A stretch of DNA of 64,000 nucleotides from Protoeuglena noctilucae (GCA_958009085.1 OY253684.1:868001-932000), one strand, 5' to 3'; positions 3,238 to 61,200 are shown, counted from the stretch's first letter. Numbers and translations are program-made. The notes: generated by a model from the sequence alone, not told the origin.

Positions 3238-5627
<2,390 letters not shown>

Positions 5628-5946: not shown

Positions 5947-6610
5947 ATGGTGAGGGCGCGCGTCCTCGTTTGGCTGGGCGGCGCAAGCCGGCTCGGGAGC
6001 GTCCCTGGCCCTCCTCCCTTTCCTCGCTGGCTTCGCCGGCGCGTCTGCTGCACTCTGTCGCCACATAGCCCGGCAGGCGGGCCCTCGCGGGCTCCCCACG
6101 CCCCAGAGACGTCCTGTTTCCCACGGGCCCCCGCGGAGGCGCTCCCTGCGCTGTCCTTGCGCCCCTGTTGACTCTTGATTAGCTCCTTTCCCAGACCGCT
6201 GGCGCTGCGGGCCTCGCCGGGGCGCGGGACGGCGAGCACGCGGGCGTCGGTCCGCCCCGCTGCTCGCTCGTCCCCTTGCGCGCCGCGCCTCCCCCGTCCT
6301 CCCCGCCCGTCGCCCGCCCCACTTCCCCTCCCCAATTCCCTGCCGCAGCCGTCTAATAAGACCTTCCGGGTCAAGCGGGTGCTGGCCAAGAAGGCCAAGC
6401 AGAACCGCCCCATCCCCTACTGGATTCGCTTCAAGACGGACATGAAGGTGCGCGGGTCATTTGCGTTTGTCACAGACTTGCCGGGTCGCACGGGCGCGCC
6501 GCGCCGGAGCGTCCGCCCGCCCCTCGCGACCTGTTGCCGACGTGTTGCCGCTGCAGATCCGCTACAACGCCAAGCGCCGGCACTGGAGGCGTACCAAGCT
6601 GGGCATCTGA
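5947..6610 (+). CDS. RPL39: 60S ribosomal protein L39 (eL39)
   Basis: Exons 5947-5949 (ATG|GTGAGG), 6349-6447 and 6557-6610 give 51 aa: [51 protein letters not shown]. Confidence 0.97.
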
Positions 6611-6954
6611 TCCAGCGACGTAGCAGCCATAGGCGGGGCGGCCGCTCCCCGGTCGGGGCAGCGATGCCGGCGTGAGCTCATGTCACACAGCGGGGTCACG
6701 CACTTGCTTTCTGAAATTCAACCCAAACCGCTGCCCTTACCGGTGAAAGGAAGTGCAACGAGTGTGGATTGCGACTCCTCGTGATCCGAGAAGAGACGCG
6801 AACGGGCAGAGAGTACAGTGGCAGGTCCGCAAGACCTGGCCATGCGAGCGCTGCAGCTCCCATCCGTTTATGGGCGATTGATCCCACCAATGCCATTAGT
6901 AGAGAGAACGTATAAGCCCCGCAGCGCACGCTTCCATCACCGCTGCTACCACCG

Positions 6955-9900
6955 CTACCGGTTCCCGGCCGAGCCGCCCCGCCCCACGTCCCCTCCCCTG
7001 GCGTGTGGCATCTCCCAGGGCCGCACCGACAGCTGCCGGAGGAAGGGGATGTCAGCCGCGGCCACGTGCCCGGGCGCGACGTCCATCGCCACGTTGAAGA
7101 TCTCGTGCATGAAGGCGCGTGCGGCACGGGTGTGGTAGCGGCGCTGTCCGGTGACCAGGTGCAGCTTGCGGGCCAGGCGGCGCCCACGGATGCGGACTTT
7201 GCAGAGGAGGCCCAAATCGACCTTCTTGGCCACTGCCGCGGTGCTGCGGGGTGGGGGGGAGGGGTGACGGTGGTGAGCACGTGCGGTGGGGAGGTGCGAG
7301 GGCGGTGGGGAGGTGGGGAATGGGAGAGAGAGAAGGGGAGAGGGGGGCAGTGGGCGATTTGCGATGTCACCTCCGCGCGTCTCGCATCGAATGCAGCGCC
7401 ACTCTCTACCCACCCCAGCACTGCACCCACCTCTGCTCCCCACCCACCCCACTCTCTACTCACCCCGCTCACCTGAGGAAGGCCACCCCCAGGTTGAACT
7501 GCACGGCGCTCTTGATGGCCTCGACGCTGTTTAGCTGCATGCTCTCTCGGATGCGGGACCAGTCCACGCCCGCGCTGGCGATGAGCTCGCGCTGCACGTC
7601 GCGCGTGTTGCTCTCGTTGTTCTGCGAGGGGAGTGGGATGCATGATGTCAGCTATCAGTGCCTCCTCTAATCTCATATCCTCTTACTTCATCCATCCCCT
7701 CTCCTCTCACCAGCGTGATGAAGTCGTGCGCACACAACCCCACTCCACTCATCCTCTCTCCCCATTCCCTCACCAGCGTGATGAAGTCGTGCGCGTACAG
7801 CTCCTCCACATCCACCACGCCCCTCTTCGCCAGTGGGTGCGCCAGACCCACCGCCATCACCACCTCATCCTCCGTGTAGGCTGCAGTTGGGATGCAGGGG
7901 GTGGCATGAGGTGCACGGGGTGTGGCATGCGGTGCTTGGTGATTGGCTGGTGGTGTTTACATGCTAGTCTTGACAACCAAGCATGTGTCGTTGTGCCGAG
8001 TCACTTGTCGCTCTTACCCACGGAGCTTAGCTGCCCCATCGTCACCTGGGTATCAAATTGATAACAATCGACACAACCCACTCCCTCACCCACGGAGCTG
8101 AGCTGCCCCATCATCACCTAGCAGTCAGATTGACAACAATCGATACAACCAATACAATCCACTCCCTCACCCACGGAGCTGAGCTGCCCCTCCAGGTGTG
8201 CGGGCACCCCGTTGGCGACGATGGCGGCGTCGAGGTCACCCCTGGCCACGCTCTCGCACACCGATGGGGAGTCGCCCACCGTCAGCTTGACGCTCACGCC
8301 GGGGTGGCGGGATTTGAATATCGACACCAGGCGGGGCATCAGGTACGTGCCTGGGGGGGCGAGAGAGATGGGGGTGAGTGGGGGAGGGGTATGACTGGGT
8401 GATGGTCGTCTCAAGCCACAACCCTCACCTCAATCCCCATGCAATGCTCGTGTCACTCCCCATCCCCATTCCCACACCTCCACCCCCCCTCGCCTGTCAT
8501 GTGCGATGCTCCCAGTCACATGCCACCCATCCCATGCATATCCCAAATCACCACATCTCGCCTGTCATGTGCGACGCCCCCAGGTGAATGGCCCCGATCT
8601 CCGCGGCCTCCATGTCTCGCAGCGCCACCACCGCCTCTGTGCACAGACGCAGCACGCGCTCAGCGAAGGGGAGCAATGCCTCTCCCTCCACGGAGAGAGA
8701 CGAGTAGTTGGTCTTGAGGCGGTGACGCTGGAAGAGACTGGGGGGGAGAGGAGGGTGGGGGGGGGTGAGGGGAGAGTGGGGGGCAGAGGGGTGTGGGGAT
8801 GGGATGGGAGGGGTGAGGAGGTGGGGTTGGGATAGAGTAGGGGGGGCTGAGGGGGGCGATGAAAAGTGGGCTTTGTGTTTGCCACTCTCGCACTCATCAC
8901 TCACCTGCACCTCCCCTCCATGCTCTTCATCGCCACCACCACTCACTCACTCACTGATCACTCACTCATCGCTCACCTGCACCCGCACCTCCCCTCCATG
9001 CTCTTCACCGCCACCACCGTCCCCGGTGATGTCATGCCCAGCGCCTCCGCCGCTCCCTTGATCGACTCCCTAGACGCGCATGCCAGAAACACCGCCAGCT
9101 CCTCCAATAGGAATGGCACGGGGATGGGCTCTTCCATGGTTGCTAGGAAGTCCTCCTCGGGGCGGTCACCGCCAGAGGTGCGGGGGGCACTGGGGGGGGG
9201 GAATAGGAGTGGGGTGGGGGTGTTGGTGAGGGGGAAGGGGGATGTGAGGGGTGTGAGGGGGGGGGGGGGGGGGTGAGGGGGGTGAGAGGGGGGGTGTGAA
9301 GGGAGAGGGTGTGTGAAGGGGGTGAGGGACGTCAAAAGGGGGATGAGGGTAGGAGGTGGTGAGAGAGGGCGTGAGGGGAGGGGTGAGTTGAGGAGAGGGT
9401 GGGGGAAAGCGAGCGCAACATAAGGCGTGGCCATAGCAGCGAGCCCACCCCTCACCGTCCCCCCCCTGGCCCCCCCTCCTCCTCCTCCCCCATCGTCACA
9501 CCGCGGAATCTCTCAGCTTCCGGCCTCAGCGCATCCAAATCGGACATGTGAGCCCTCACGTCCACCCCACCCCCCACCCCGCGCCACGCCCACCCCGCCC
9601 TCCTCACTCCTGCCCCCCCCGCATGCTCCCCTGATTGCCCCTCCCCCACCGTTGCAGCCTCGCCCACAATGCCGCTCCCTGCACCCCTCTCGCCCTCCCC
9701 CCCCCCGCCCCTCCACCGCGCTCTCCTCTACCTGACAGTGCGTGTCGCCACCCCCGGGCACCTCCTGGAAGCACTCTAGCACTCGGTCGCCTAGCGGGTA
9801 TCGCCCCACCACCTCCACAGCCGGCGTGGCATTACGTGAACGCCCACTGCCACCCATCCCACGCCCTGTCGCCACTAACAGCGCCTGCCCCTCTCGCACC

Positions 9901-12900
9901 ACCCGCGACGCGCGGGCTTCCCAGGCAAACTCGCGGCCATTTACGCGATCGCTGTCTTGCGACGAAACACTCTCTGACACGCCGCTCTCTGGCACTGCTG
10001 TCCCTGGCGCGACTGCCCTGTGCCGCGCGCCCTGCGCTGGGAGTGTAGCAGCGTCGGCGTGTGAAGCCTCGGCCGGCCCTCGCGCGGCTGCCGCCCCGTT
10101 GGTGTGAAACGGGACACTGGCGCCGTCTCTGGCAGTGGCGGGTGCCAGTCGGTGGGGCAGGGGGCGGGGAGGGGCGGCGACCTGGGGTCCCTCCTGGGCG
10201 GCAGACACGGGGGGGGATCAATCGCATTCATGTGATAGGAATTGAATGCATTCAGCGAGAGTAATGAAATGGAATGGGTCTCGTTTGACACACACGCACG
10301 CCGCCCACCCACGCTCCCGTACCTTCACGCCGTCATACCACCACACCATCACGCAACCATGCCACCATCCCACCCCTCGCCTGCATCTCCGTGGCCATCT
10401 CCCACATGGCCTCCACCAGCGCCGCCGCTGCCTTGGACTGGTACCTACGCTCGTTGGTCAGCATCAGGATGTGACGTGACAACTCCAGGCCCTCCACGCA
10501 CACCTGGGGGGGAATGGGAGACGCGAGATGGTACTGTTGTGACAATGCAAGAGCACTAGCATGTGCTGCAGCAGTAGTTGTGTCGCGCTGGTAAGCAGCG
10601 CATCTGACTTGCACCTCGCAACACTGAACAACAGCACACTCCGTCACGAACCCCAGTCATTCCCTCCCCACCCCCTGTCACCCACCTCCTTCAGCAGCCC
10701 CTCCTTGAGCTCCCTCATCGCCGCCGCCGCAGACACGAACGCCACCCCGATGCCCTCCTCCACGGCGTTCTTGACGGCCTCGACCGAGTTGACCTCGAAC
10801 GCCACGTGCAGCTGGGAGGCGTCCACGCCGCGACGGGAGAGGAGCTCGGACTGGCGGCGGTACACTGGGGGGGGAGGGGTGAGGGGGTGATGGGGGATAA
10901 GAGCTCGGACTGGCGGCGGTAGACTGGGGGGACGCATGCGTTGAGCGATCGACCACCCTCCCCGCATCGAGTGCATCTGTGTCACACTCACATCATCCAT
11001 GGACACGTCATGTGCAAGTGACTCTCACCCGACGAGTTGCGGTTGATGGACATGAGACAGCATGCGTGAGACTCACCGCAGCGACTGCAGTCGTGACACG
11101 CTCACATCATCCATCGCATGTGACACACACTCACCCGACGAGTTGCGGTTGATGGACACGAACCGCAGCGACTGGAGGTGCGATGCGGAGATGGGCCCCA
11201 TGGACCACACGGGGTCGTCGGGGGCACACACCAGCGCAATGCGATCGGACAGATACGGCTCCACCCTCACGCCGCGTGGCAGCACGGACGCGGGCACCAC
11301 GCCGCCCACCAGGGCAGCGTCGAGGTCGCCTGGGGTGGGAGAGGGGGGAGTGGGGTTGGATGGGGGTGAGGGGGGATGGGGGAGGGGGTGAGTAATACCA
11401 GCGGGGTGCGAGACTGTGGAACGAGTGTTGTGTTGGATACTGTTATCAGAGTTGGTCAGTCATAAGTACTCGCATGCGCACTTATAACATTGCATGTGCA
11501 CCTGTGCCAAATGCTCCCGTCACATACGCACCCCCTCCCCACCCCCCCTCACCCGATGCCACGGCCAGTGCGATCTTACACATCCATTCCATAAGCACCC
11601 CCCTCCCCCTTTCTCCCCCCCTCCCTCACCCGATGCCACGGCCAGTGCGATCTTGCACATCCACCCCACATGCACCCACCCCCTCACCCGATGCCACGGC
11701 CAGTGCGATCTTCCTCGTGCTCTCCACCGCCAGCTGCACCTCCACCCCGGGGTGTCTCTCCAGGAAGCGACGCACCAGGCGGGGCATCAACTCCACGCCC
11801 ACTGTCTGCGATTGGGAGGGGGGAGGGACTGGGTCACGAGGCATCAACTCCACGCCCACCGTGGGGAGGGCAGGGCGTAGGACTGGGGTAGCGACTCCTG
11901 ACATGGCAGGTTCAGCCATGTCAGGCTTACTATGCGCGCCTCACCCGCTCCCATCTGCCGCTCCCATCTGTCACTTTACTGCCTATCCGACCTTGCACCC
12001 ATCTCTCACCTCATCGCACCCCATCTCTCACCTGGCTGCCCCCCAGCCGCACCCTCCCCGCCCTCACGCTCTTGAGGTCCTCCAGCGCCGCCACTGCATC
12101 CTTGCACTCGGCAATCACCAGGGAACTGCGAGGAAGGGAACGAGCGACGCTGTCTGGCCTGTGGCAAGCATCGCTGTGCCGTTCTACGACTTGGGCCTGC
12201 AAAGATGACTCAGTAACTACTATTAATAGTCAGTTACACTCCCATTCCCACCCCCACCTCGCTACCACACTCGCCTGTGATAGCACAGCACAGCACCACC
12301 CCCACCCCACTCCCATGTTAATACTCGCCTGTAGTGGTACAGCACCACCCCCGCCTCGCTGAGCCTCCACGGCGGCATGGTGCGCGACCACAGCTGCACC
12401 CCCAGCGACTGCTGCAGCTTCAGCAGCCGACCGCGGAGGCAGTTGTGGTCCAGGCCCGACCACTCCGCCACCTGGGAGACAGGCGATAGATATGTCATAT
12501 GTCATGGACAACCACAATGCAATGCAATGCATGGGAAAGCGCACGCGCCAACACCCCCGCATGCACCCACGCACCTTGTACACCCCCCGCCGCTCCGCCA
12601 CCCAGTGCAGCGCCTCCAGCTGACTCAGCGAGAAGGGGTAGTTGCTCAGAACCGTGCCCCCGGACCGCAGCCGCAGCGTCGGCTCGGGTCCCGCGCTGGC
12701 GGTGCTTCCATTGGTGTCGTCGCCTGCCACTTCGCCCTCGTCTGGGCTGAGCCCCAACGCCCGGGCCGACTCCGCGGCAATCTCCGCGACCGCGCCATCG
12801 AGACGCGACAGCGACATGCGCTTCCGCCGCTTTCGCTGCACGGGGGGCGCGGGCGGGTGCGGGGGAGCCGCGCGGCCGGGGTCGTCGGCCCCCAAAGGGC

Positions 12901-13161
12901 CGCGCCCTCCCTTCAGGCGCACGCGCGACTGCCCGGCGCGCTGGACCTGGCCGGAGGATACCCTCGGGACGTCCCCCGTCGACGCCCTGGCGCAAGAGGG
13001 CCCGACTGCGGGCGAGCAGTCTGGCGGTTGTTGCGGGCCAGCTCGGGAGCGCCCGCGCGGACCGCTCTGCCTCCCGCGAGGGTCCCACCTCTTTGACGCG
13101 GTGGAGCTCGCCAGGTCTGACTCACAAGCGGCGCGCGGAGGCCCCTCCGCGCGGCGAACAT
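6955..13161 (-). CDS. rbcR: Nuclear-encoded, probably plastid-targeted tandem (double) LysR-type regulator of RbcR/Ycf30 type
   Basis: 16 exons with consistent phases: 13161-13089, 13005-12923, 12835-12575, 12471-12329, 12125-12032, 11805-11688, 11329-11135, 10864-10686, 10503-10381, 10193-9456, 9189-8977, 8737-8562, 8350-8171, 7880-7774, 7621-7473, 7243-6955. Unit 1: YPFSLSQL...LGGSQTVGVELMPRLVRRFLERHPGVEVQLAVESTRKIALAVASGDLDAALVGG...FEVNSVEAVKNAVEEGIGVAFVS...RRYQSKAA. Unit 2: VPFLLEEL...LGASHMTGTYLMPRLVSIFKSRHPGV...AYTEDEV...MQLNSVEAIKSAVQFNLGVAFLS...RRYHTRAARAF. The linker exon needs a 1-nt correction in a G10 run near 9697-9706. Confidence 0.88.
7706..7790 (-). repeat. Exon-end/donor echo repeat in LysR intron (period 63)
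   Basis: CTCACCAGCGTGATGAAGTCGTGCGC occurs at about 7706 and 7769. Confidence 0.95.
8016..8190 (-). repeat. Three-copy exon-end/donor echo repeat in LysR intron
   Basis: ACCCACGGAGCT(T/G)AGCTGCCCC at about 8016, 8088 and 8169. Confidence 0.95.
11548..11712 (-). repeat. Three-copy exon-end/donor echo repeat in LysR intron
   Basis: CTCACCCGATGCCACGGCCAGTGCGATCTT at about 11548, 11625 and 11683. Confidence 0.95.
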
Positions 13162-13715
13162 GCCGCCTGGCAAGCTGTGAAGAGCGCAGCCCCGGGCGGC
13201 CGCCCGGGGCATATTCTTGCACGAATGCCCCCCGAGAGGATACATCTGGACATCCATTTTCGCAAGACGAACTCGGGGTCCGCTAGGGTGGTCTGCGCGG
13301 CTAGCAAAACAGCCTCATCAGCCAAACTGTCGTCTCCGGTGCGCGCCAAGCTCACGCGGCACCAAAACTCATACGCCATGGAACAGGGAAGTGACGCATC
13401 ATGGGGGACGAGCACCGGGCGCGGCGCCGCGAGGAGGGACGGATCCGCTCTGGCACAGCGGGTCTTACCTGAGCTGCGAGCGCAGCGAAAAAAGGAGTGA
13501 ACGCGTTTCCCGGCGCTCGCAAGGACTCGCGCAGTTGCGGTGGCACTGGGCAAGCGACCCCCGCGCGTAGGGGCTGCGCGTGTATTTCAAATTGCCTGCC
13601 CGGACAGACGGGCCGCCCTGCGCCCCGATGGTGCCGCCCTGCGAGCTCGCGTGACGCGCGACGTGCTTATCCATCCCTGCTGCGGCTCGCGGGTCACAAA
13701 GGAGGGGCGACCGCC

Positions 13716-55238: not shown

Positions 55239-58200
55239 CTATGCGAAGCCCCGCTGCGACCCGCGCTGGTTGCCCCCGCGCTCCTCCGCCGTCGCTGGGT
55301 CCACCACCTCCGCGCGCGCTGCGGGGGACGAGACAGCGACGAGTGACAAAAACGCATGCATGGCACTAACTCGGCTGGCGCGCCTCAGCATTAGCCACAC
55401 TGCCAAGCCACTGAAATGATCAAAGCATTGATATCCCGCACCGCACCACCCCCACCCACTTGTCATGCACTGTCATGCACCCCAGCTCTTTACACATCCC
55501 ATGCACGCCTCACCTGGCACGCGGAAGACGACCGACTCGGACCTCACGACGATGTCCGTCTCGAAGGCGCCCGGCTCCTCCGCCGCAAACACCACCGTGA
55601 TGGGAGTCGCTATGCCCACCGCCAGGGGGCCAGGGCGGTACACCACCTGCCAGGGCGCGGGGGGGCGCTCGACCGTGAACCGCGCCACCTCCGCCGCCAC
55701 GTTGGCCAGGCGCAGGGTGGCCGTGGCGCGCTGCCCCGGCTCCAGCGCCCCCAGGTGCAGCGCGTCGGGGGTGAGTTCGAATTCCTTGGTGAAGCGGCCG
55801 TGCGACTGCAGGGCCAGGCCCGCGGCCGTGCGGCTCATGCGGAAGGCCCCCGCCTCCGTGGACAGGTGCGGCAGGTTGACCTCGGGGGGCGCGGGCACGC
55901 GGGTGAGGTACCCGGGCAGAGCGGGGGCGGCGCGGCGGGGGCCGCCCACCACGCTGCGCATCCAGGGGCGGTCGGGGCCGGGCGCTGCGCCCGGGAAGGC
56001 ATCCGTGGACGCCTGCGCTGCCATTCCCTGCGCCGCCGGGGCCCCGGGGAGCGGCTCGGCGCTGGCCGCCTCCCCCGTGCCCTGGCTGGGGCGCGACAGC
56101 CGCGGCACTCGGCCTCGCTCCGATGCGGAGGCGAGGCTGGAGAAGCTGCCGCCCCTGCGCAGCGACGACGACCCCTCCTGCACCCCCGACCGCGCCGTGG
56201 GCCTCTCCCCGTCCCTGCCCCTCCCCCTCCCCCTCCGCGACTGCCGCCTCTCCCGCCGGATCTGCTCCAAGTCCTCCACCGTCACGCTCTCCTGCCCCAC
56301 GTGCTCCTCGCGGCGCTGACGCACGGGGCGCGCCACCACCATGCCCCCGCTCAGCGCCACGAGGCCCTCCTCGCTGTCGAAGTAACGAAGCACCGCCCCA
56401 GCCGAGGGGGCACCCACGCCCGCCCCACGCGCGGCGCGGCGGTCGGCGCGGCGCTCCGCCCTCCGCGCCGCCACCTCCTCGGCATCTGCCGCCGCCTCCT
56501 CGCGGCCCTTGTACAGAGCATGATCGTTTCCACCCCCCTCCTGTTCGCGCTCGTGCCCCTCCTCCCCCACAGCTGCCAGCCCCGTCCCCTTCCTCGCCGC
56601 CTCCGCCTCCCTTCTCACCGCCCGCTCCTCCTCCCCCGCGTGCTCCCCACGGTCGTCCGGCAGCACGAACTGCGCCGCGGGGTCCCTGGCCCCGTCCTGG
56701 TCCTGCCAGGCCGCCACGCGGGCCAGGGCCTCGTTGCAGCGGGACAGCTGGTCACGCGACAGCGCGGGCAGCTCCAGCACCTGCCGGTGCACCAGCACGG
56801 GCGGGGGGGGCCGGCGACCGCACCACCGCCCGCGGCACCAGCACCCGGGGCACGAAGAGCGACCGCAGGACTGCCTCGGCGTCCGCGCCCGGGGGGGGCG
56901 AGGGCAGCAGGGGTGTCGTGACGGTGGACGGGGGGCGCAGCGTCGGGAGCGCCGCGGGGGGCGGCATGGCGGCGGGGGCGGGGGCGTCCGCGAGGGGCAG
57001 GGGCGGCACGTCCCGGGTGCGCAGGTGCAGGCGCGTGAGCATGTCGACCTGCACGGCCCAGGTGCCCGTCAGGCCCACGGCGGGGTGGTCTGCGGGAATG
57101 AGGGCAGCTATGGGGGTTCAAGCAACAGGCGAGGGCCAAGGGCAGAGACTCCACCCTCTTGACGATGGGCAGCGGGGGTGAGAGCACCGTCAGTGACGCA
57201 GCCATCGCCTCCACAGCCCGCCCCCTCACCCGGCGTGGGGTTGGTCTGCATCACTATGTCGCAGTCCCCCGCCGCCGCCGCCCTCTCCTTCTCCGCCAGC
57301 AGCGAAGCGAAGGCACGCGCGGGGAGCACCTCCCACCCGCTCCCGTCCGCACGCACCACAAACACGCGGGGGGGGACGCCGGGGGCCAGGGGGGGCACCC
57401 GCCGCTCCTCCACCACCATCATCGCCGCGCCCTCCGCCTCCCCCTCCGCATCGCCCGCGCCCTCCGCCCCCGCCCCCTCCCCACCCACGTTCCCATCACC
57501 CTCCACCTCCCCCTCCGTCGCCCGCCGCGACCCCCGCTCACCCGGGGACGGCGACGGCGCCCCCTCCGATGGAGAGACGCGGCCCGCATCCGCACCCGCG
57601 TCCTTCCCCGCCCCCTTCCCCTCCTCCGCAGCACCGCCTGTCTCGCCCTCGCCCTCCCCCTCGCCCTCCCCGTCGTCGCTGCCCCCCTCGTCCCCCTCCG
57701 CGGCCTCCTCCGCCCCCGGCTCCGGGAACACCGCCACCCCCGCCTGCCCCGGCATCACGTAGACCCCCGCGTCCTCACCCGTGGACAGCGCGCACGACCC
57801 CGCCTCCAGGTCCGCCACCCAGCACCGCGGCAGCAGCGCCGCCACCTCCCTGGCGGAGTCGGCGCGGGGCGGCGCGACGAACGACCGCGGCTCGGGGGGG
57901 GAGGGCAGCGACGGCAGCTCCTCCTCGTCCCCCTTGCGCCGCTTCTTGCCCTCGGCCTCCGCCAGCACCGCCTCTACCGCGGCCTTGTCCTCCTGGGGGA
58001 GCAGGTAAGGCGAGGGTGATACAGAAGAGAGAGAGAGAGTTGACATTGACATTCAAATGGACAGTTGCAGTTGCGGTGTGGTATGCACCACCCATACCCT
58101 CTTCCCCGCCCTCGCCTCGTATTGCGCCCACCGCCTGCGCTCCTCCTCCTCGTGCTCCGCCCTCGCCGCGTCCATCACCCGTGCGTACCCCTCCTGCAGG

Positions 58201-61200
58201 TCCGCGCTGGCGTCCGCCAGGGCCACCAGGGGCGCCGTGCCACGCGACAGCACCGCCATGTGCTCGGCCACGGCCAGGGACCCCACCCCGGCCACCTCCA
58301 CGGACAGCGCCCCCTCCGCCGCGTGCCACCGCATCTCCACGCCGGGCACAGGAGACACCCGCACCCCCTCCGCCGACCCCGTCACGCGCGGCAGCCCCGG
58401 CGCCTCCGCCACCCACGGCCGCACCTCCTGCCCCTCGTCCTCCTCCGGCCCCGCCGCCGCCACTGACACCCGCGCCCCGGGGCGGCTGGCGTGCGCGCTG
58501 CCGCGGGAGGGCGCGGGGGCGGGCGTGGTCACCACCCGCGTGCCGTCCGGGCCCTGCACCAGCACCGGGCCGCCCTCGTAGCACACCACGGAGACGCGGT
58601 CTGCGCGGGTCGTCACCGCAGCGCCCGTGTCCGGGTCCGTCACCGCCGCGCACGACACGGCGGCGCGCGGCTCCACCCGGCGGGGCGCAGGCGTGGCAGC
58701 CGCATCTGTCGGGGGATGCGGGGCGGCGTCGCCCGTCGCGGCCTCGGCAGCGGGGGCGTCCGCGGGCGCAGGTGCGGCGTCGCTGCCCCACTGCGCCCAC
58801 CGCTCCCCCCTCGCGTTGGTGCCCACCCACGGCTGCCCCTCCCCGGCCGCGCGCGTCAGCGTGGCCCCGTCCGGCAGCAGCGCCTCCGTCTCGCCCCCGC
58901 GCAGGTGCCGCACCACGGCGCCCGACCGCGTCACCGTGCGGCGGTCCTCCACCGGCGCCTCCAGCAGCGCCGCCGCCGACCCCCCCGGCAGCGGACCCCC
59001 GTGCACGTCCGCCGGGAGCAGCGCGGGGGCCTCCCACCCCCCGCCGGCGCCGGCACCGCGCCCTCCCGTGCGGTAGAAGGCCACGCTGCCGTCCTGCCGG
59101 ACCTCCGTCACCAGCCCCCCCGGCGCCACCAGCCGCACGGCCGAGTTGTACGCGATGGGCTCCCCCGCCCCGACGGGGGCCATGCGGGCCTCGGCGGCCA
59201 GCACGGCGCCGCCCCGCAGCGTCAGGAGCAGCGGGGCGCCGGGGGCGGGCGGCAGGCACAGCCCCGCCCCCCCCGCCACGGCCACGGCCACGTGCCCGGG
59301 CTCTACGCGCACCACCGCCCCCGCCCCAGCGCCTATGTCGGGGTAGTGGAAGGCCTCGGGCATGGCGCGGTCGGCGAGGGCGGGGGGCAGGACGTAGGCG
59401 AGGTCGGGGAGTGCCGGGGGCGCCCCCTCGGCCCTCACGCACTGGGCGAGGAAGCCGGCCAGGGGCACGAGGACCGGGAGGGTGGCGCAGTGGGCGCGGT
59501 GGGTGGTGCCGGCGAAGCAGGTGAGGAGGACGGCGTCGAGGGAGGGGAGGAACTGCGACGCGGCGTCCGGGAGGGTGCGCAGGGCCTCGGCGGCCGTCTG
59601 GCGCAGGACGGCGTCGGGGAGGACGTCGAGGTGGCGGCGGGAGAGCACCTCGGCGTGGTGGGCGACGGCGACGCCCTCGGGGGCGCCGCGGAGGGCGCGC
59701 TGCAGCACCTGCGCGAGCTCCACCTGCGAGGGGGTGACCCCGCCCACCTCGGCCGTCGCGGCCGCTAGCACCGCCTGGGACACGCGGAGGGACTGCCGGC
59801 CCAGGTCCGAGGGGGGGGGGGCGCGCGAGGCCGTTGGCGCCGGGGACGCGGGCGAGGAGGGCCATGTGCCGCTCCACGCGGGCGACGTCCAGGGCGCCGC
59901 CGGGGAGGAGGAAGGACCGCCAGCCGCCCTCGGACCCGCTCTCGATGTCCACGCGCACGCGGCCGTTCTCCCCCACGCGCACCCCCGCCACGGCCGCGGG
60001 CACCTCCGCCGCGCCCTTGCCCACGGGGGAGGCCGCCCTCGTCCCGCGCTTGTCCTCAGCTGCACTGGCACCCATGCCCGCTGCCACGCCTGCCGCCACG
60101 CCCGCGGCCGCCCCCGCCGCTGCCAGGGCGCTCTCGTCCCCCTCGGACACGATGAGGGGCTCCCACGCGGGGGCCTCCGCTCCCCGCCGCGGCAGCCCCC
60201 GCGCCTCGCCCAGCGCCCCCGCCAGCGCCCGCGTGGTGAATGCCACGGCGTCCGCCTGGTTGGCGCGGGGCGCCTCGGCCTGGCACGACCGCGCCACCTG
60301 CTCGACCATGCAGTGGAGCACCACCGGCACCGACGCCTGGCCCTGCGGGAGGGGGACCAGCAGGGGCATCGGTCACGCTGCCAGGGACAGGGTGGCAGGG
60401 ACTTGTGGGAAGGTGCAGGGTGCGAAAGCGGATGCGGGTCCGGATCGTGCTTACGATATGACATGCAGAGCAAGCTGTGTCGTGCTCGGTCCGCCACTCA
60501 CCGGGGGCACGGTGTCCATGAGGGTGCGGTAGAGCTGCATGTCGACGTGCTCCCGGGGCCGCGCGTCGGGCAGGGCGTAGATGACGGCGCGCCCCCGCCA
60601 GGCCCGGTACTCGAGCGTGGCGCCGGCAGCCACGGCCAGCGCCCCGGCCAGCTCGCGCCACCCGAGGGGCGGCTCCCCCTCCTCCCCCGCCCCCGGGCGC
60701 ACGCGGGGCGCCGCGCGGGTGAAGACGGCCGGGCACTCGCTCCCCACGGGCACGTCCAGCAGCACCATCTCCCGGTCGCCCTCCGCCATCGCCACCAGAG
60801 AGTCCCAGGCGCGCCCCGGGTGCACGACGTCCGGGGTGTCCGTGGGTGTCGCGTCGTCCACCCCCGGCACGCGAAGGCGCACGGCCCCGGCGATCGGGAC
60901 CCCGGCCACCCGCAGCTCCCGCAGCCGCTCGGCCGAGTACCCGAACCCCACCACCAGGAACACGCGCGCCGCCTGGGTGGGGCGCTGGGCGTCGCACTCG
61001 GCCGCCGCCAGCGCCGCCTCCACCTCCGCCACGTCCGCGTGCGCCTGCGCGTCGTCCATCTCCACCTCGGCCTCCTGCCGGGACGCGGCGCCCGCGTTGT
61101 CCGACCGGCCCCCGTCCTCCACATCCTCCTCCAGTCGCGAAGGGTCACGGGGGTCGCTGTGCGAGGGAGGGGGCTGCGGGACACGAGGAGCGGGGAAGTT

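Follow-up and report, generated by a model that had tools for sequence, protein, structure and literature searches.

LysR-type transcriptional regulators (LTTRs) make up the largest bacterial regulator family, and their working form is a tetramer of identical chains that adopt two shapes. Known LTTR homotetramers, including CbnR (1ixc, 1iz1, 7d98), CcmR (5y2v), CysB (9fdd) and OxyR (6g1d), consist of single units of ~300 amino acids (aa), with four identical chains in each assembly. As four-unit oligomers, LTTRs bind T-N11-A sites and bend DNA in an effector-dependent way. A different arrangement is found on the minus strand of a 64,000-nucleotide stretch of DNA from Protoeuglena noctilucae (GCA_958009085.1 OY253684.1:868001-932000; hereafter the window, in whose coordinates all positions are given unless another locus is named). 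Here an intron-rich gene at 13161-6955 contains two complete LysR-type units, each with an HTH_1 and a LysR_substrate domain. It is probably a single nuclear gene for a tandem LTTR of ~980-1000 aa, a member of a chlorophyte family that would act by the mechanism proposed below.

The closest known plastid system is RbcR/Ycf30, LysR-type regulators of the Rubisco operon that act at the rbcL promoter in response to metabolites. Ycf30 is introduced as the plastid homologue of RbcR in the part of the source that names it (PMC9833100). In the part of PMC1781420 that treats the gene, rbcR is assigned to the plastid genomes of Chlorokybus, Cyanophora, red algae and the lineages with red-derived plastids, and no other green plastid was known to carry it by 2007. 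RbcR/Ycf30 resembles the tandem gene in placing HTH_1 before LysR_substrate and, if the cyanobacterial relatives described below are RbcR, in sharing an N-terminal PF(T/S)L.QL start. The tandem gene differs in being nuclear with spliceosomal introns, in carrying the unit twice per chain and in having recognition helices that are not conserved. With at least 13 spliceosomal introns, 11 of them confirmed as removed in RNA, it does not have the encoding of a plastid or cyanobacterial gene.

A nuclear setting is also suggested by the surrounding DNA. Open frames in the window are short pieces that end in GTGAG-type donors and are preceded by C-rich tracts ending in CAG, and exon-only versions of the stretch occur in marine metatranscriptome runs. 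These split frames and exon-only versions, together with the green-algal relatives of the protein, point to the nuclear DNA of a marine green alga. G+C content across the window is 62-79%; the LysR gene lies in nuclear-type DNA of 65% G+C and adjoins a ribosomal protein gene.

The sequence-only reading of 8977..12835 proposed two complete LysR units fused head to tail, and two complete units lying head to tail are confirmed: Pfam domains follow the same order in both units, which align at 33% identity over 307 aa (E 1e-49). Exon borders were set by eye, then frame and splice signals were verified by script. Unit 1 comprises 12817-12575, 12471-12329, 12125-12032, 11805-11688, 11329-11135, 10864-10686 and 10503-10381, and its spliced model runs for 365 aa up to ...EMATEMQ. 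The exon at 12575..12835 opens at an acceptor (cag/CGAAAG at 12835, a slash marking the splice border), continues through RKRRKR to Met 12817, and encodes an N-terminal extension and the first half of the first helix-turn-helix (HTH). Exon 2 (12329..12471) encodes the recognition helix (..SGLDHNCLRGRLLKLQQSLG..) and the wing and ends in a GC donor, CAG/GCGAGT. Exons 3-7 (10381..12125), backed by Pfam and RNA joints, encode the linker helix and LysR_substrate and end in ...EMATEMQ. A GC-AG intron, intron 7 (10194..10380; CAG/GCGAGG ... CCCAG/), leads from unit 1 to the linker exon (9456..10193), which encodes ~245 aa of low complexity with weak codon bias. Intron 8, at 9190..9455 (ACG/GTGAGG ... 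CCCCAG/), would join the linker to unit 2.

The unit 2 exons occupy 6955..9189 (9189-8977, 8737-8562, 8350-8171, 7880-7774, 7621-7473 and 7243-6955, the last with the stop) and hold the second HTH (..LGMTSPGTVVAVKSMEG..), LysR_substrate and a C-terminal RPWE motif. The first of them contains an internal ATG at 9137, from which the spliced model (9137-8977 and the five exons that follow) gives 353 aa with a true stop at its end; exon 8737-8562 ends in a GC donor, ACAG/GCGAGA. Upstream of unit 1, a putative first coding exon at 13126..13161 encodes MFAARRGLRAPL, reading from ATG 13161 to a donor CTT/GTGAGT, with more in-frame ATGs upstream. Contigs over 6500-13600 contain no RNA joint for this exon, and the depth of RNA contigs falls from 2.89 in bin 13136-13372 to 0.35 in bin 12899-13135. 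Sequence and the depth pattern together make a first exon with ATG 13161, a donor after 13126 and an acceptor before 12835 probable. From N- to C-terminus, the protein consists of an extension, LTTR unit 1, a disordered linker of ~245 aa, unit 2 and a short RPWE tail.

Profile searches support both units. Ten of 14 in-frame exon or open reading frame (ORF) pieces match HTH_1 or LysR_substrate, in profile order, in both units; Pfam gives no match for unit-1 exons 1 and 3, the 234-aa linker frame or unit-2 exon 2. HTH_1 (PF00126, cut-off 26.6 bits) is matched by the first exon of unit 2 at 29.8 bits. The same domain in unit 1 is split by an intron, so that exon 2 alone reaches 14.5 bits (E 0.036), below the cut-off, and exon 1 nothing; unit 1 nevertheless aligns column for column with orthologues that match HTH_1 twice. 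LysR_substrate (PF03466, cut-off 28) spans exons 4-7 of unit 1 (profile 15-206, best 34.6 bits) and exons 3-6 of unit 2 (profile 19-204, best 37.9 bits).

The tandem layout is not confined to the window. A word search with unit-1 exon 5 returned one longer protein, P0001 (823 aa), which is 65% identical in exon 5 and whose match starts exactly at the window's exon 4 border. A single frame of P0001 takes in the effector domain of unit 1, a linker of 190 aa, the complete unit 2 and, last, an acidic tail. A phmmer search with P0001 against 1.84 billion representatives gave 31,819 matches at E <=0.001, headed by long proteins matched in two stretches. Pfam analysis of 15 proteins found HTH_1 and LysR_substrate twice each in P0002, P0004, P0005 and P0008; P0001, P0006 and P0009 are cut versions of the tandem layout, P0003, P0007 and P0010 are one-unit calls, P0014 is an LTTR of one unit and P0088 differs in architecture. 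P0001, P0002 and P0004 are metagenome proteins with both units in one open frame, and members of the P0002 and P0004 clusters turn up on numerous contigs from marine metagenomes, some as long as 570 kb.

Full-length tandems of this architecture are also present in algal transcriptomes, where the earlier reading had suggested they might be sought. P0005 is an MMETSP transcript ORF marked 'type:complete', and P0174 (843 aa, from the cluster of P0008) is UniRef100_A0A061RBL0, a transcript ORF of Tetraselmis sp. GSL018 that UniRef names 'Probable RuBisCO transcriptional regulator'. The truncated tandem P0006 comes from the genome of Pedinophyceae sp. YPF-701. All named relatives of the window protein are green algae (Tetraselmis, a pedinophyte and Picocystis). 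A multiple alignment that included the script-made translation of the window is collinear throughout, the window protein running alongside P0001, P0002, P0004, P0005, P0174 and the product of metagenome locus L081. An RPWE motif near the C-terminus is shared, with RPWE or RPWA in 9 of the 12 aligned rows.

Locus L081, on which P0007 sits, gives an independent view of the gene's structure. Unit 1 exons lie upstream of P0007 on the same strand, and unit 1 ends in ...AQPLFQ, followed by CAG/GCGAAG, a C-rich tract and CCCCAG/, with both borders in phase 0. The position is that of the window's intron 7; the GC-AG intron directly after unit 1 is therefore conserved. After it, a single open frame (3255-5039 of L081) spans the linker and all of unit 2 as far as the stop codon, with no frame break and no further intron in the linker. 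Besides this intron and the C-terminal RPWE, the tandem family is marked by a linker motif, (D/A)L(E/D)ALRPEAE, common to the window, P0001, P0003 and P0007. Read with nine G residues in the linker's G run (G9) and with a 9456/9189 junction, the window gene is a member of this conserved chlorophyte tandem LTTR family, a grouping proposed here.

Doubled LTTRs of bacterial appearance offer a partial parallel. P0024, P0070 and P0123 resemble the algal tandem in having HTH_1 and LysR_substrate twice each in one frame of 619-681 aa. They are one-member clusters (e.g. from a Bacillaceae metagenome-assembled genome, MAG) with short linkers or none; they stood outside the trees described below and may be sequencing-error fusions. 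The algal tandem, unlike these doubles, recurs in several lineages and in transcripts.

Modelling of the tandem was carried out on the orthologue P0002 rather than on the window protein. From a 66-row alignment, AlphaFold2 gave two full LTTR folds, at residues 70-372 and 441-750, separated by a disordered join at 375-440, with further disorder at 1-69 and 751-773 (mean predicted local distance difference test score, 76.8; predicted template modelling score, 0.56). A score of 0.56 would say nothing firm about packing between the units. Foldseek searches with this model return full-length LTTRs as best matches (CcmR 5y2v, E 3.6e-20; ACIAD0746 8sbf; OxyR; CysB; CbnR), and a sequence search of the Protein Data Bank agrees, matching 8sbf, 5y2v and OxyR. 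Each P0002 unit folds like the chains of the LTTR homotetramers listed above (E 3.6e-20 to 1e-15). The algal tandem differs from them: a linker of 70-250 aa connects two diverged units, and a pair of chains would be predicted to give four units of two fixed kinds.

Whether the window's two units form one product depends first on how unit 1 ends. The unspliced frame stops 15 codons past ...EMQ (ORF 10333..10656), which makes two adjacent genes the null reading. Contigs of three marine metatranscriptome runs (X1, X2 and X3) and of one DNA run with the same organism label (X5) were aligned to 6500-13600; X1 and X2 come from one sample and X3 from another, all in one study. RNA contigs of X1 and X2 contain a joint 10192->10380, which skips 10193/4-10379/80, and the contig that carries it runs on through the linker exon, 10192-9723. 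Splicing therefore carries unit 1 into the linker, bypassing the nearby stop. This joint bears out both of the predicted borders, the GC donor at 10380 and the start of the exon at 10193. The accompanying claim that no stop follows ...EMQ fails literally, given the stop 15 codons on in unspliced DNA, and holds in substance, since RNA of X1 and X2 skips it.

Most of the remaining exon structure is likewise visible in RNA, with contig joints confirming 11 of the 13 modelled introns. An X1 contig joint at 12468->12572 (cut +3) marks the donor side of exon 12575..12835, and a joint at 12125->12329, with ends CT..GC, removes the next intron. Introns 4, 5 and 6 are backed by RNA joints, as are all five introns of unit 2 in X1, several of them also in X2 or X3; the GC-AG introns 12328-12126 and 8561-8351 are among those confirmed. 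Intron 3 (12031-11806) and intron 8 (9455-9190) have no joint among the RNA contigs of X1-X3. X2 contig depth is 4.6 over unit 2 and 4.9 at the unit 1/linker splice joints, contig depth being a quantity that cannot rank gene parts. A stray DNA-contig joint at 8954->12842, one side of which is only 21 letters long, was set aside as a repeat artefact.

Continuity of the linker is a more delicate matter. The sequence-only reading held that one G must be removed from a run of ten (G10) for the frame to stay open. The run is present at 9697..9706 on the coding strand (C10 on the plus strand) and shifts the frame as assembled; the linker exon, which opens at 10193 as predicted, stops at 9513. X5 DNA contig record 16, which spans 9257-11053, differs from the window solely in one letter absent at 9697, the only indel listed across 7.1 kb. 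Given G9, the donor ACG/GTGAGG after 9456 and the acceptor CCCCAG/ before 9189 yield a single 981-aa frame, and the frame closes only with this pair plus G9. Removal of a G is thus present in the X5 DNA contig and absent from the majority of summed depth (293/454).

The linker motif bears directly on the frame. A tblastn search with the N-terminus of P0007 matches the window at 9568-9509, where 20 aa align at 70% identity (E 2e-5), in a frame entered only through a one-base shift; there, P0007 GGDPRALLADLEALRPEAER aligns with the conserved linker motif of the window, GVDVRAHMSDLDALRPEAER (9509..9568). DLDALRPEAER is conserved only in this post-shift frame, and the pattern ALRPE[AS]E has a single occurrence across all six frames of the 64 kb. 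Farther upstream, a weak P0007 match, VAPGAAVP, lies at 10013-9990 in the pre-shift frame (E 0.6).

The proposed junction between 9456 and 9189 is supported by this motif, by the GC-AG intron and unbroken frame of L081, and by the end of an RNA contig. None of the RNA contigs contains it as a joint; X1 RNA record 1, which covers unit 2, runs upstream past ATG 9137 and ends at 9190 with six unplaced letters. A spliced upstream exon with a final G would leave just such a pattern, which suggests that an exon is joined there. Within intron 8, at 9192-9273, the coding strand carries two runs of C, C10 and C17 (G10 and G17 on the plus strand). X5 summed contig depth jumps to 20,846 in bin 9107-9343, which marks the C-rich low-complexity sequence there as highly repeated in the genome.

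Several observations weigh against a single continuous chain. The deletion at 9697 is carried by only 161 of the 454 summed DNA depth, and 293 of 454 lack it; G10 could therefore be real, or the strain mixed. The depth without the deletion comes from other, unlisted contigs over a low-complexity place. RNA contigs of X1-X3 leave 9191-9722 uncovered, with G-run length in RNA and the 9456/9189 junction both unseen. All of the RNA evidence comes from the metatranscriptomes of one study, X1 and X2 being one sample. Codon bias in the linker is weak (G+C at third codon positions, GC3, 0.70 vs 0.88-0.91 in both units) and leaves the frame past the G run undecided, at GC3 0.64, 0.75 and 0.78 in the three frames. 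Unit 2 may also be made as a separate product, since it carries an ATG of its own at 9137. Finally, under G10, 35 GT or GC sites join in frame to 9189, and the linker may therefore be spliced otherwise than modelled; all 35 discard the conserved motif.

Taken in one direction, these points describe two neighbouring paralogues. G10 would be true, unit 1 and the linker would stop at 9513, and unit 2 would be made from ATG 9137 through an internal start or its own transcript, the window copy being a recently broken or split fused gene. The assembled G10 and its stop, the majority depth without the deletion, the plausible ATG and the interval bridged by no RNA contig are all as this explanation would have them. 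It is unlikely nonetheless: the sole long DNA contig at the locus differs from the window by just one base, X1 RNA record 1 passes ATG 9137 to reach the acceptor at 9189/9190 with six letters that do not fit the genomic sequence there, it is the shifted frame that holds the conserved motif at 9568-9509, and all close relatives examined are continuous.

Taken in another direction, G10 could be correct within a single fused transcript whose linker is spliced differently and is shorter, from a GC donor with its last base at 9694 or 9664 to 9189. Two of the 35 in-frame sites, AGG/GCGAGA after 9694 and TGG/GCGAGG after 9664, resemble the gene's proven GC donors; both leave the frame open under G10 (902 and 912 aa) and match the GCGAG donors confirmed by RNA at three other introns of the gene. 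This arrangement is improbable. It would lose the only conserved linker motif and use an intron of 475-504 nucleotides (nt), against 103-358 nt in the 13 modelled introns, and the G9 DNA contig makes the rescue needless. Extra introns of 3n+1 length that might rescue G10 were also considered, and were rejected because no candidate has a pyrimidine tract; pyrimidine share is 0.11-0.32 in all 35 candidates, compared with 0.74-0.95 in the 13 modelled introns. A donor CAG/GTAGAG at 9732 has the wrong phase for exon 9189, and X1 RNA record 2 reads through it to 9723.

A single chain carrying both units is the supported reading, because the RNA joint after unit 1, the G9 DNA contig, the post-shift motif and relatives with both units in one frame agree. 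The fusion is well supported, short of closure at one junction: G9 as the true sequence, its presence in RNA and the 9456/9189 junction are what we infer to complete it.

The nearest relatives of the tandem are cyanobacterial. Among full-length single-unit proteins, the best relative found was P0195 from a cyanobacterial MAG, which shares 45% identity with P0002 unit 2 across 96% of that query. The P0195 family is pan-cyanobacterial; 561 of 600 matched stretches were confirmed as belonging to it, and the best 80 loci are all titled as cyanobacterial (including Prochlorococcus, Nostoc and Pseudanabaena) except one MAG labelled Gracilibacteria. Tandem units are 29-45% identical to the P0195 family, the window's own units 31-38%, with unit 2 the closer in all three species compared. 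NCBIfam contributed only generic LTTR models, with best matches below the per-unit cut-offs, and no subfamily-specific model. As leads only, the nearest Atlas structure cluster of unit 2 is cyanobacterial, and half of the cluster nearest unit 1 is eukaryotic, Rhodophyta being its most frequent phylum; this Rhodophyta-rich cluster may represent plastid genes.

Two quick maximum-likelihood trees, both unrooted, were built without P0008 (the cluster of P0174), without those ends of P0009 and P0010 that are out of frame, and without units of fewer than 250 aa. In these trees, the 15 algal unit rows (7 of unit 1, 8 of unit 2) form one group, with Shimodaira-Hasegawa-like approximate likelihood-ratio test (SH-aLRT) values of 94 and 93, apart from 20 single LTTRs and 13 cyanobacterial rows; joined by the short marine calls P0011 and P0012, the group reaches SH-aLRT 98. 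Both units are accordingly the probable products of one LTTR gene that was duplicated internally. Two aspects of this history tell against the favoured account as framed: the quick trees resolve neither unit 1 nor unit 2 as a clade, and the cyanobacterial P0195 family is only presumed to be RbcR/Ycf30, from its N-terminus. The quick, unrooted trees do not place the algal clade inside the cyanobacterial family.

The rewiring of the recognition helices is borne out. As the sequence-only reading noted, unit 1 has LDHNCLRGRL and unit 2 MTSPGTVVAV; cyanobacterial relatives have VSQPAVSLQV at that place. The motif (S/T)QPA(V/L)S, which is typical of the LTTR family and not obligatory, is absent from both window units, which have LDHNCL and TSPGTV at that place. 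VSQPAVS is kept in unit 2 of P0002, P0004 and P0009, and in unit 1 of no orthologue. Among cyanobacterial relatives the HTH hardly varies; among the algal proteins, no other part is less conserved. Their pairwise identity is 0.30 in the HTH of unit 1 and 0.33 in that of unit 2, compared with 0.45 and 0.49 in the effector domains, the best-kept parts, and the rest. Over the 14-residue recognition helix, identity to the cyanobacterial sequences is 16% for unit 1 and 38% for unit 2. On these comparisons, we lean towards unit 1 as a degenerate DNA reader, the one that would be more released from base reading.

An HTH less conserved than the effector domain is unlike typical LTTRs, and its occurrence in both units (0.30-0.33 vs 0.45-0.49) is one of two features that would suit a different kind of protein, a fused nuclear or cytosolic factor of eukaryotic style, or a metabolite sensor, in place of a plastid DNA-binding regulator. 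The other is that clusters of basic residues, which might act as nuclear signals, precede unit 1: RKRRKR in the window, and in L081 a stretch rich in Arg. RKRRKR keeps a nuclear role open. A nuclear or cytosolic protein is rather unlikely, though, on several counts. P0002, P0010 and P0005 start with long Arg/Ala/Ser/Pro-rich extensions free of acidic residues, of the kind seen in green-algal transit peptides. LTTRs activate transcription through contact with bacterial-type RNA polymerase, which in algae is confined to organelles. The nearest relatives are cyanobacterial, and the half-eukaryotic, Rhodophyta-rich Atlas cluster nearest unit 1 points the same way as a lead. The N-terminal extensions and the cyanobacterial kinship would fit plastid import.

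A mechanism can be proposed for the tandem protein as a plastid regulator. Following import into the plastid, one chain would supply the two subunits that ordinary LTTRs draw from two identical chains, and two chains would form the usual four-unit assembly. The two roles, which in LTTR tetramers fall to identical chains in two shapes, would here be fixed by sequence. Unit 2, with more of the ancestral DNA-reading helix kept, would account for most of the sequence-specific DNA binding. Unit 1, with a helix that lacks conservation even between orthologues, would contribute mainly its well-kept effector domain and dimer contacts. As suggested at the outset, the fusion might also read an asymmetric site, integrate two effectors or have one silent half.

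The gene has a second peculiarity, in its introns. Three of the 13 introns are GC-AG with a GCGAG donor (12328-12126, 10380-10194 and 8561-8351), all confirmed by RNA; GC-AG introns account for roughly one in a hundred eukaryotic introns, a share far below 3/13. In addition, 8 of the 13 introns contain spare copies of their own splice junctions (7697..12360, minus strand). A repeat search of 6900-12900 found 14 local direct-repeat families, D1-D14, which were mapped on the exon model. Donor-side copies (the exon end plus GTGAG or GCGAG), one or two each, occur in introns 2, 3, 4, 5, 9, 10, 11 and 12, and acceptor-side copies (the acceptor plus the exon start) in introns 3 and 5. Each copy is 22-114 bases away from the true junction, and the sites used in RNA are the outermost ones.

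These repeats are concentrated in the LysR gene. Eleven of the 15 local exact repeats in the 64 kb (>=14 bases, 40-150 bases apart) fall within 7700-11900; five trials with shuffled sequence yielded none, and no repeat families of this kind occur at the orthologous locus L081. Tandem Repeats Finder did not pick up the junction copies. An introner family was rejected as their source, the introns sharing only C-rich tracts and having no matches elsewhere in the window. Creation of introns by segmental duplication (PMC3265369) is a misfit: the copies include the donor or acceptor itself and lie inside pre-existing introns. Junction-spanning tandem duplications that survive as spliced-out copies would fit, leaving their concentration in one gene unaccounted for.

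Neighbouring features complete the picture of the window. At ~6350-6733 on the plus strand, a ribosomal protein gene, which we take from its motif to be L39-like, converges on the LysR gene. In RNA contigs, ...GACATGA is joined to 6555. The last exon of this gene and the 3' end of the LysR transcript overlap, so that the unstranded RNA contigs run the two genes together. Frames at 4605-5440 on the minus strand, among them a lysine-rich stretch, presumably belong to a methionine aminopeptidase 2-like gene. G+C content reaches 77-79% at 56001-60000, against 62-71% in most of the window.

The tandem appears to be a conserved, apparently undescribed form of a very well known regulator family. A search of full-text literature on green-algal and fused LTTRs and on junction duplication, with subscription journals outside its scope, found no description of the architecture, and the tandem sequences are already in databases under automatic names. 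The nuclear genome of Chlamydomonas reinhardtii has no LysR gene listed in the available portion of one survey (PMC4827209).

What the finding means for LTTRs and for green algae follows from the two-unit chain. A natural protein with two diverged units would be a ready-made test of the role of each shape in the tetramer, since the halves can be mutated separately. The spare splice junctions concentrated in this one gene pose a separate puzzle about how introns grow. In green algae without a plastid rbcR, the tandem family is a candidate for the missing bacterial-type plastid regulator, with the Rubisco genes as its likely target. More tentatively, it is possible, if doubtful, that in early-branching green algae a nuclear single-chain LTTR replaced the plastid gene for the Rubisco regulator, with unit 2 reading DNA and unit 1 acting as a second, independent metabolite sensor. 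If so, the tandem would hard-wire the compact/extended asymmetry of the LTTR tetramer, and two signals would be integrated on one plastid promoter.

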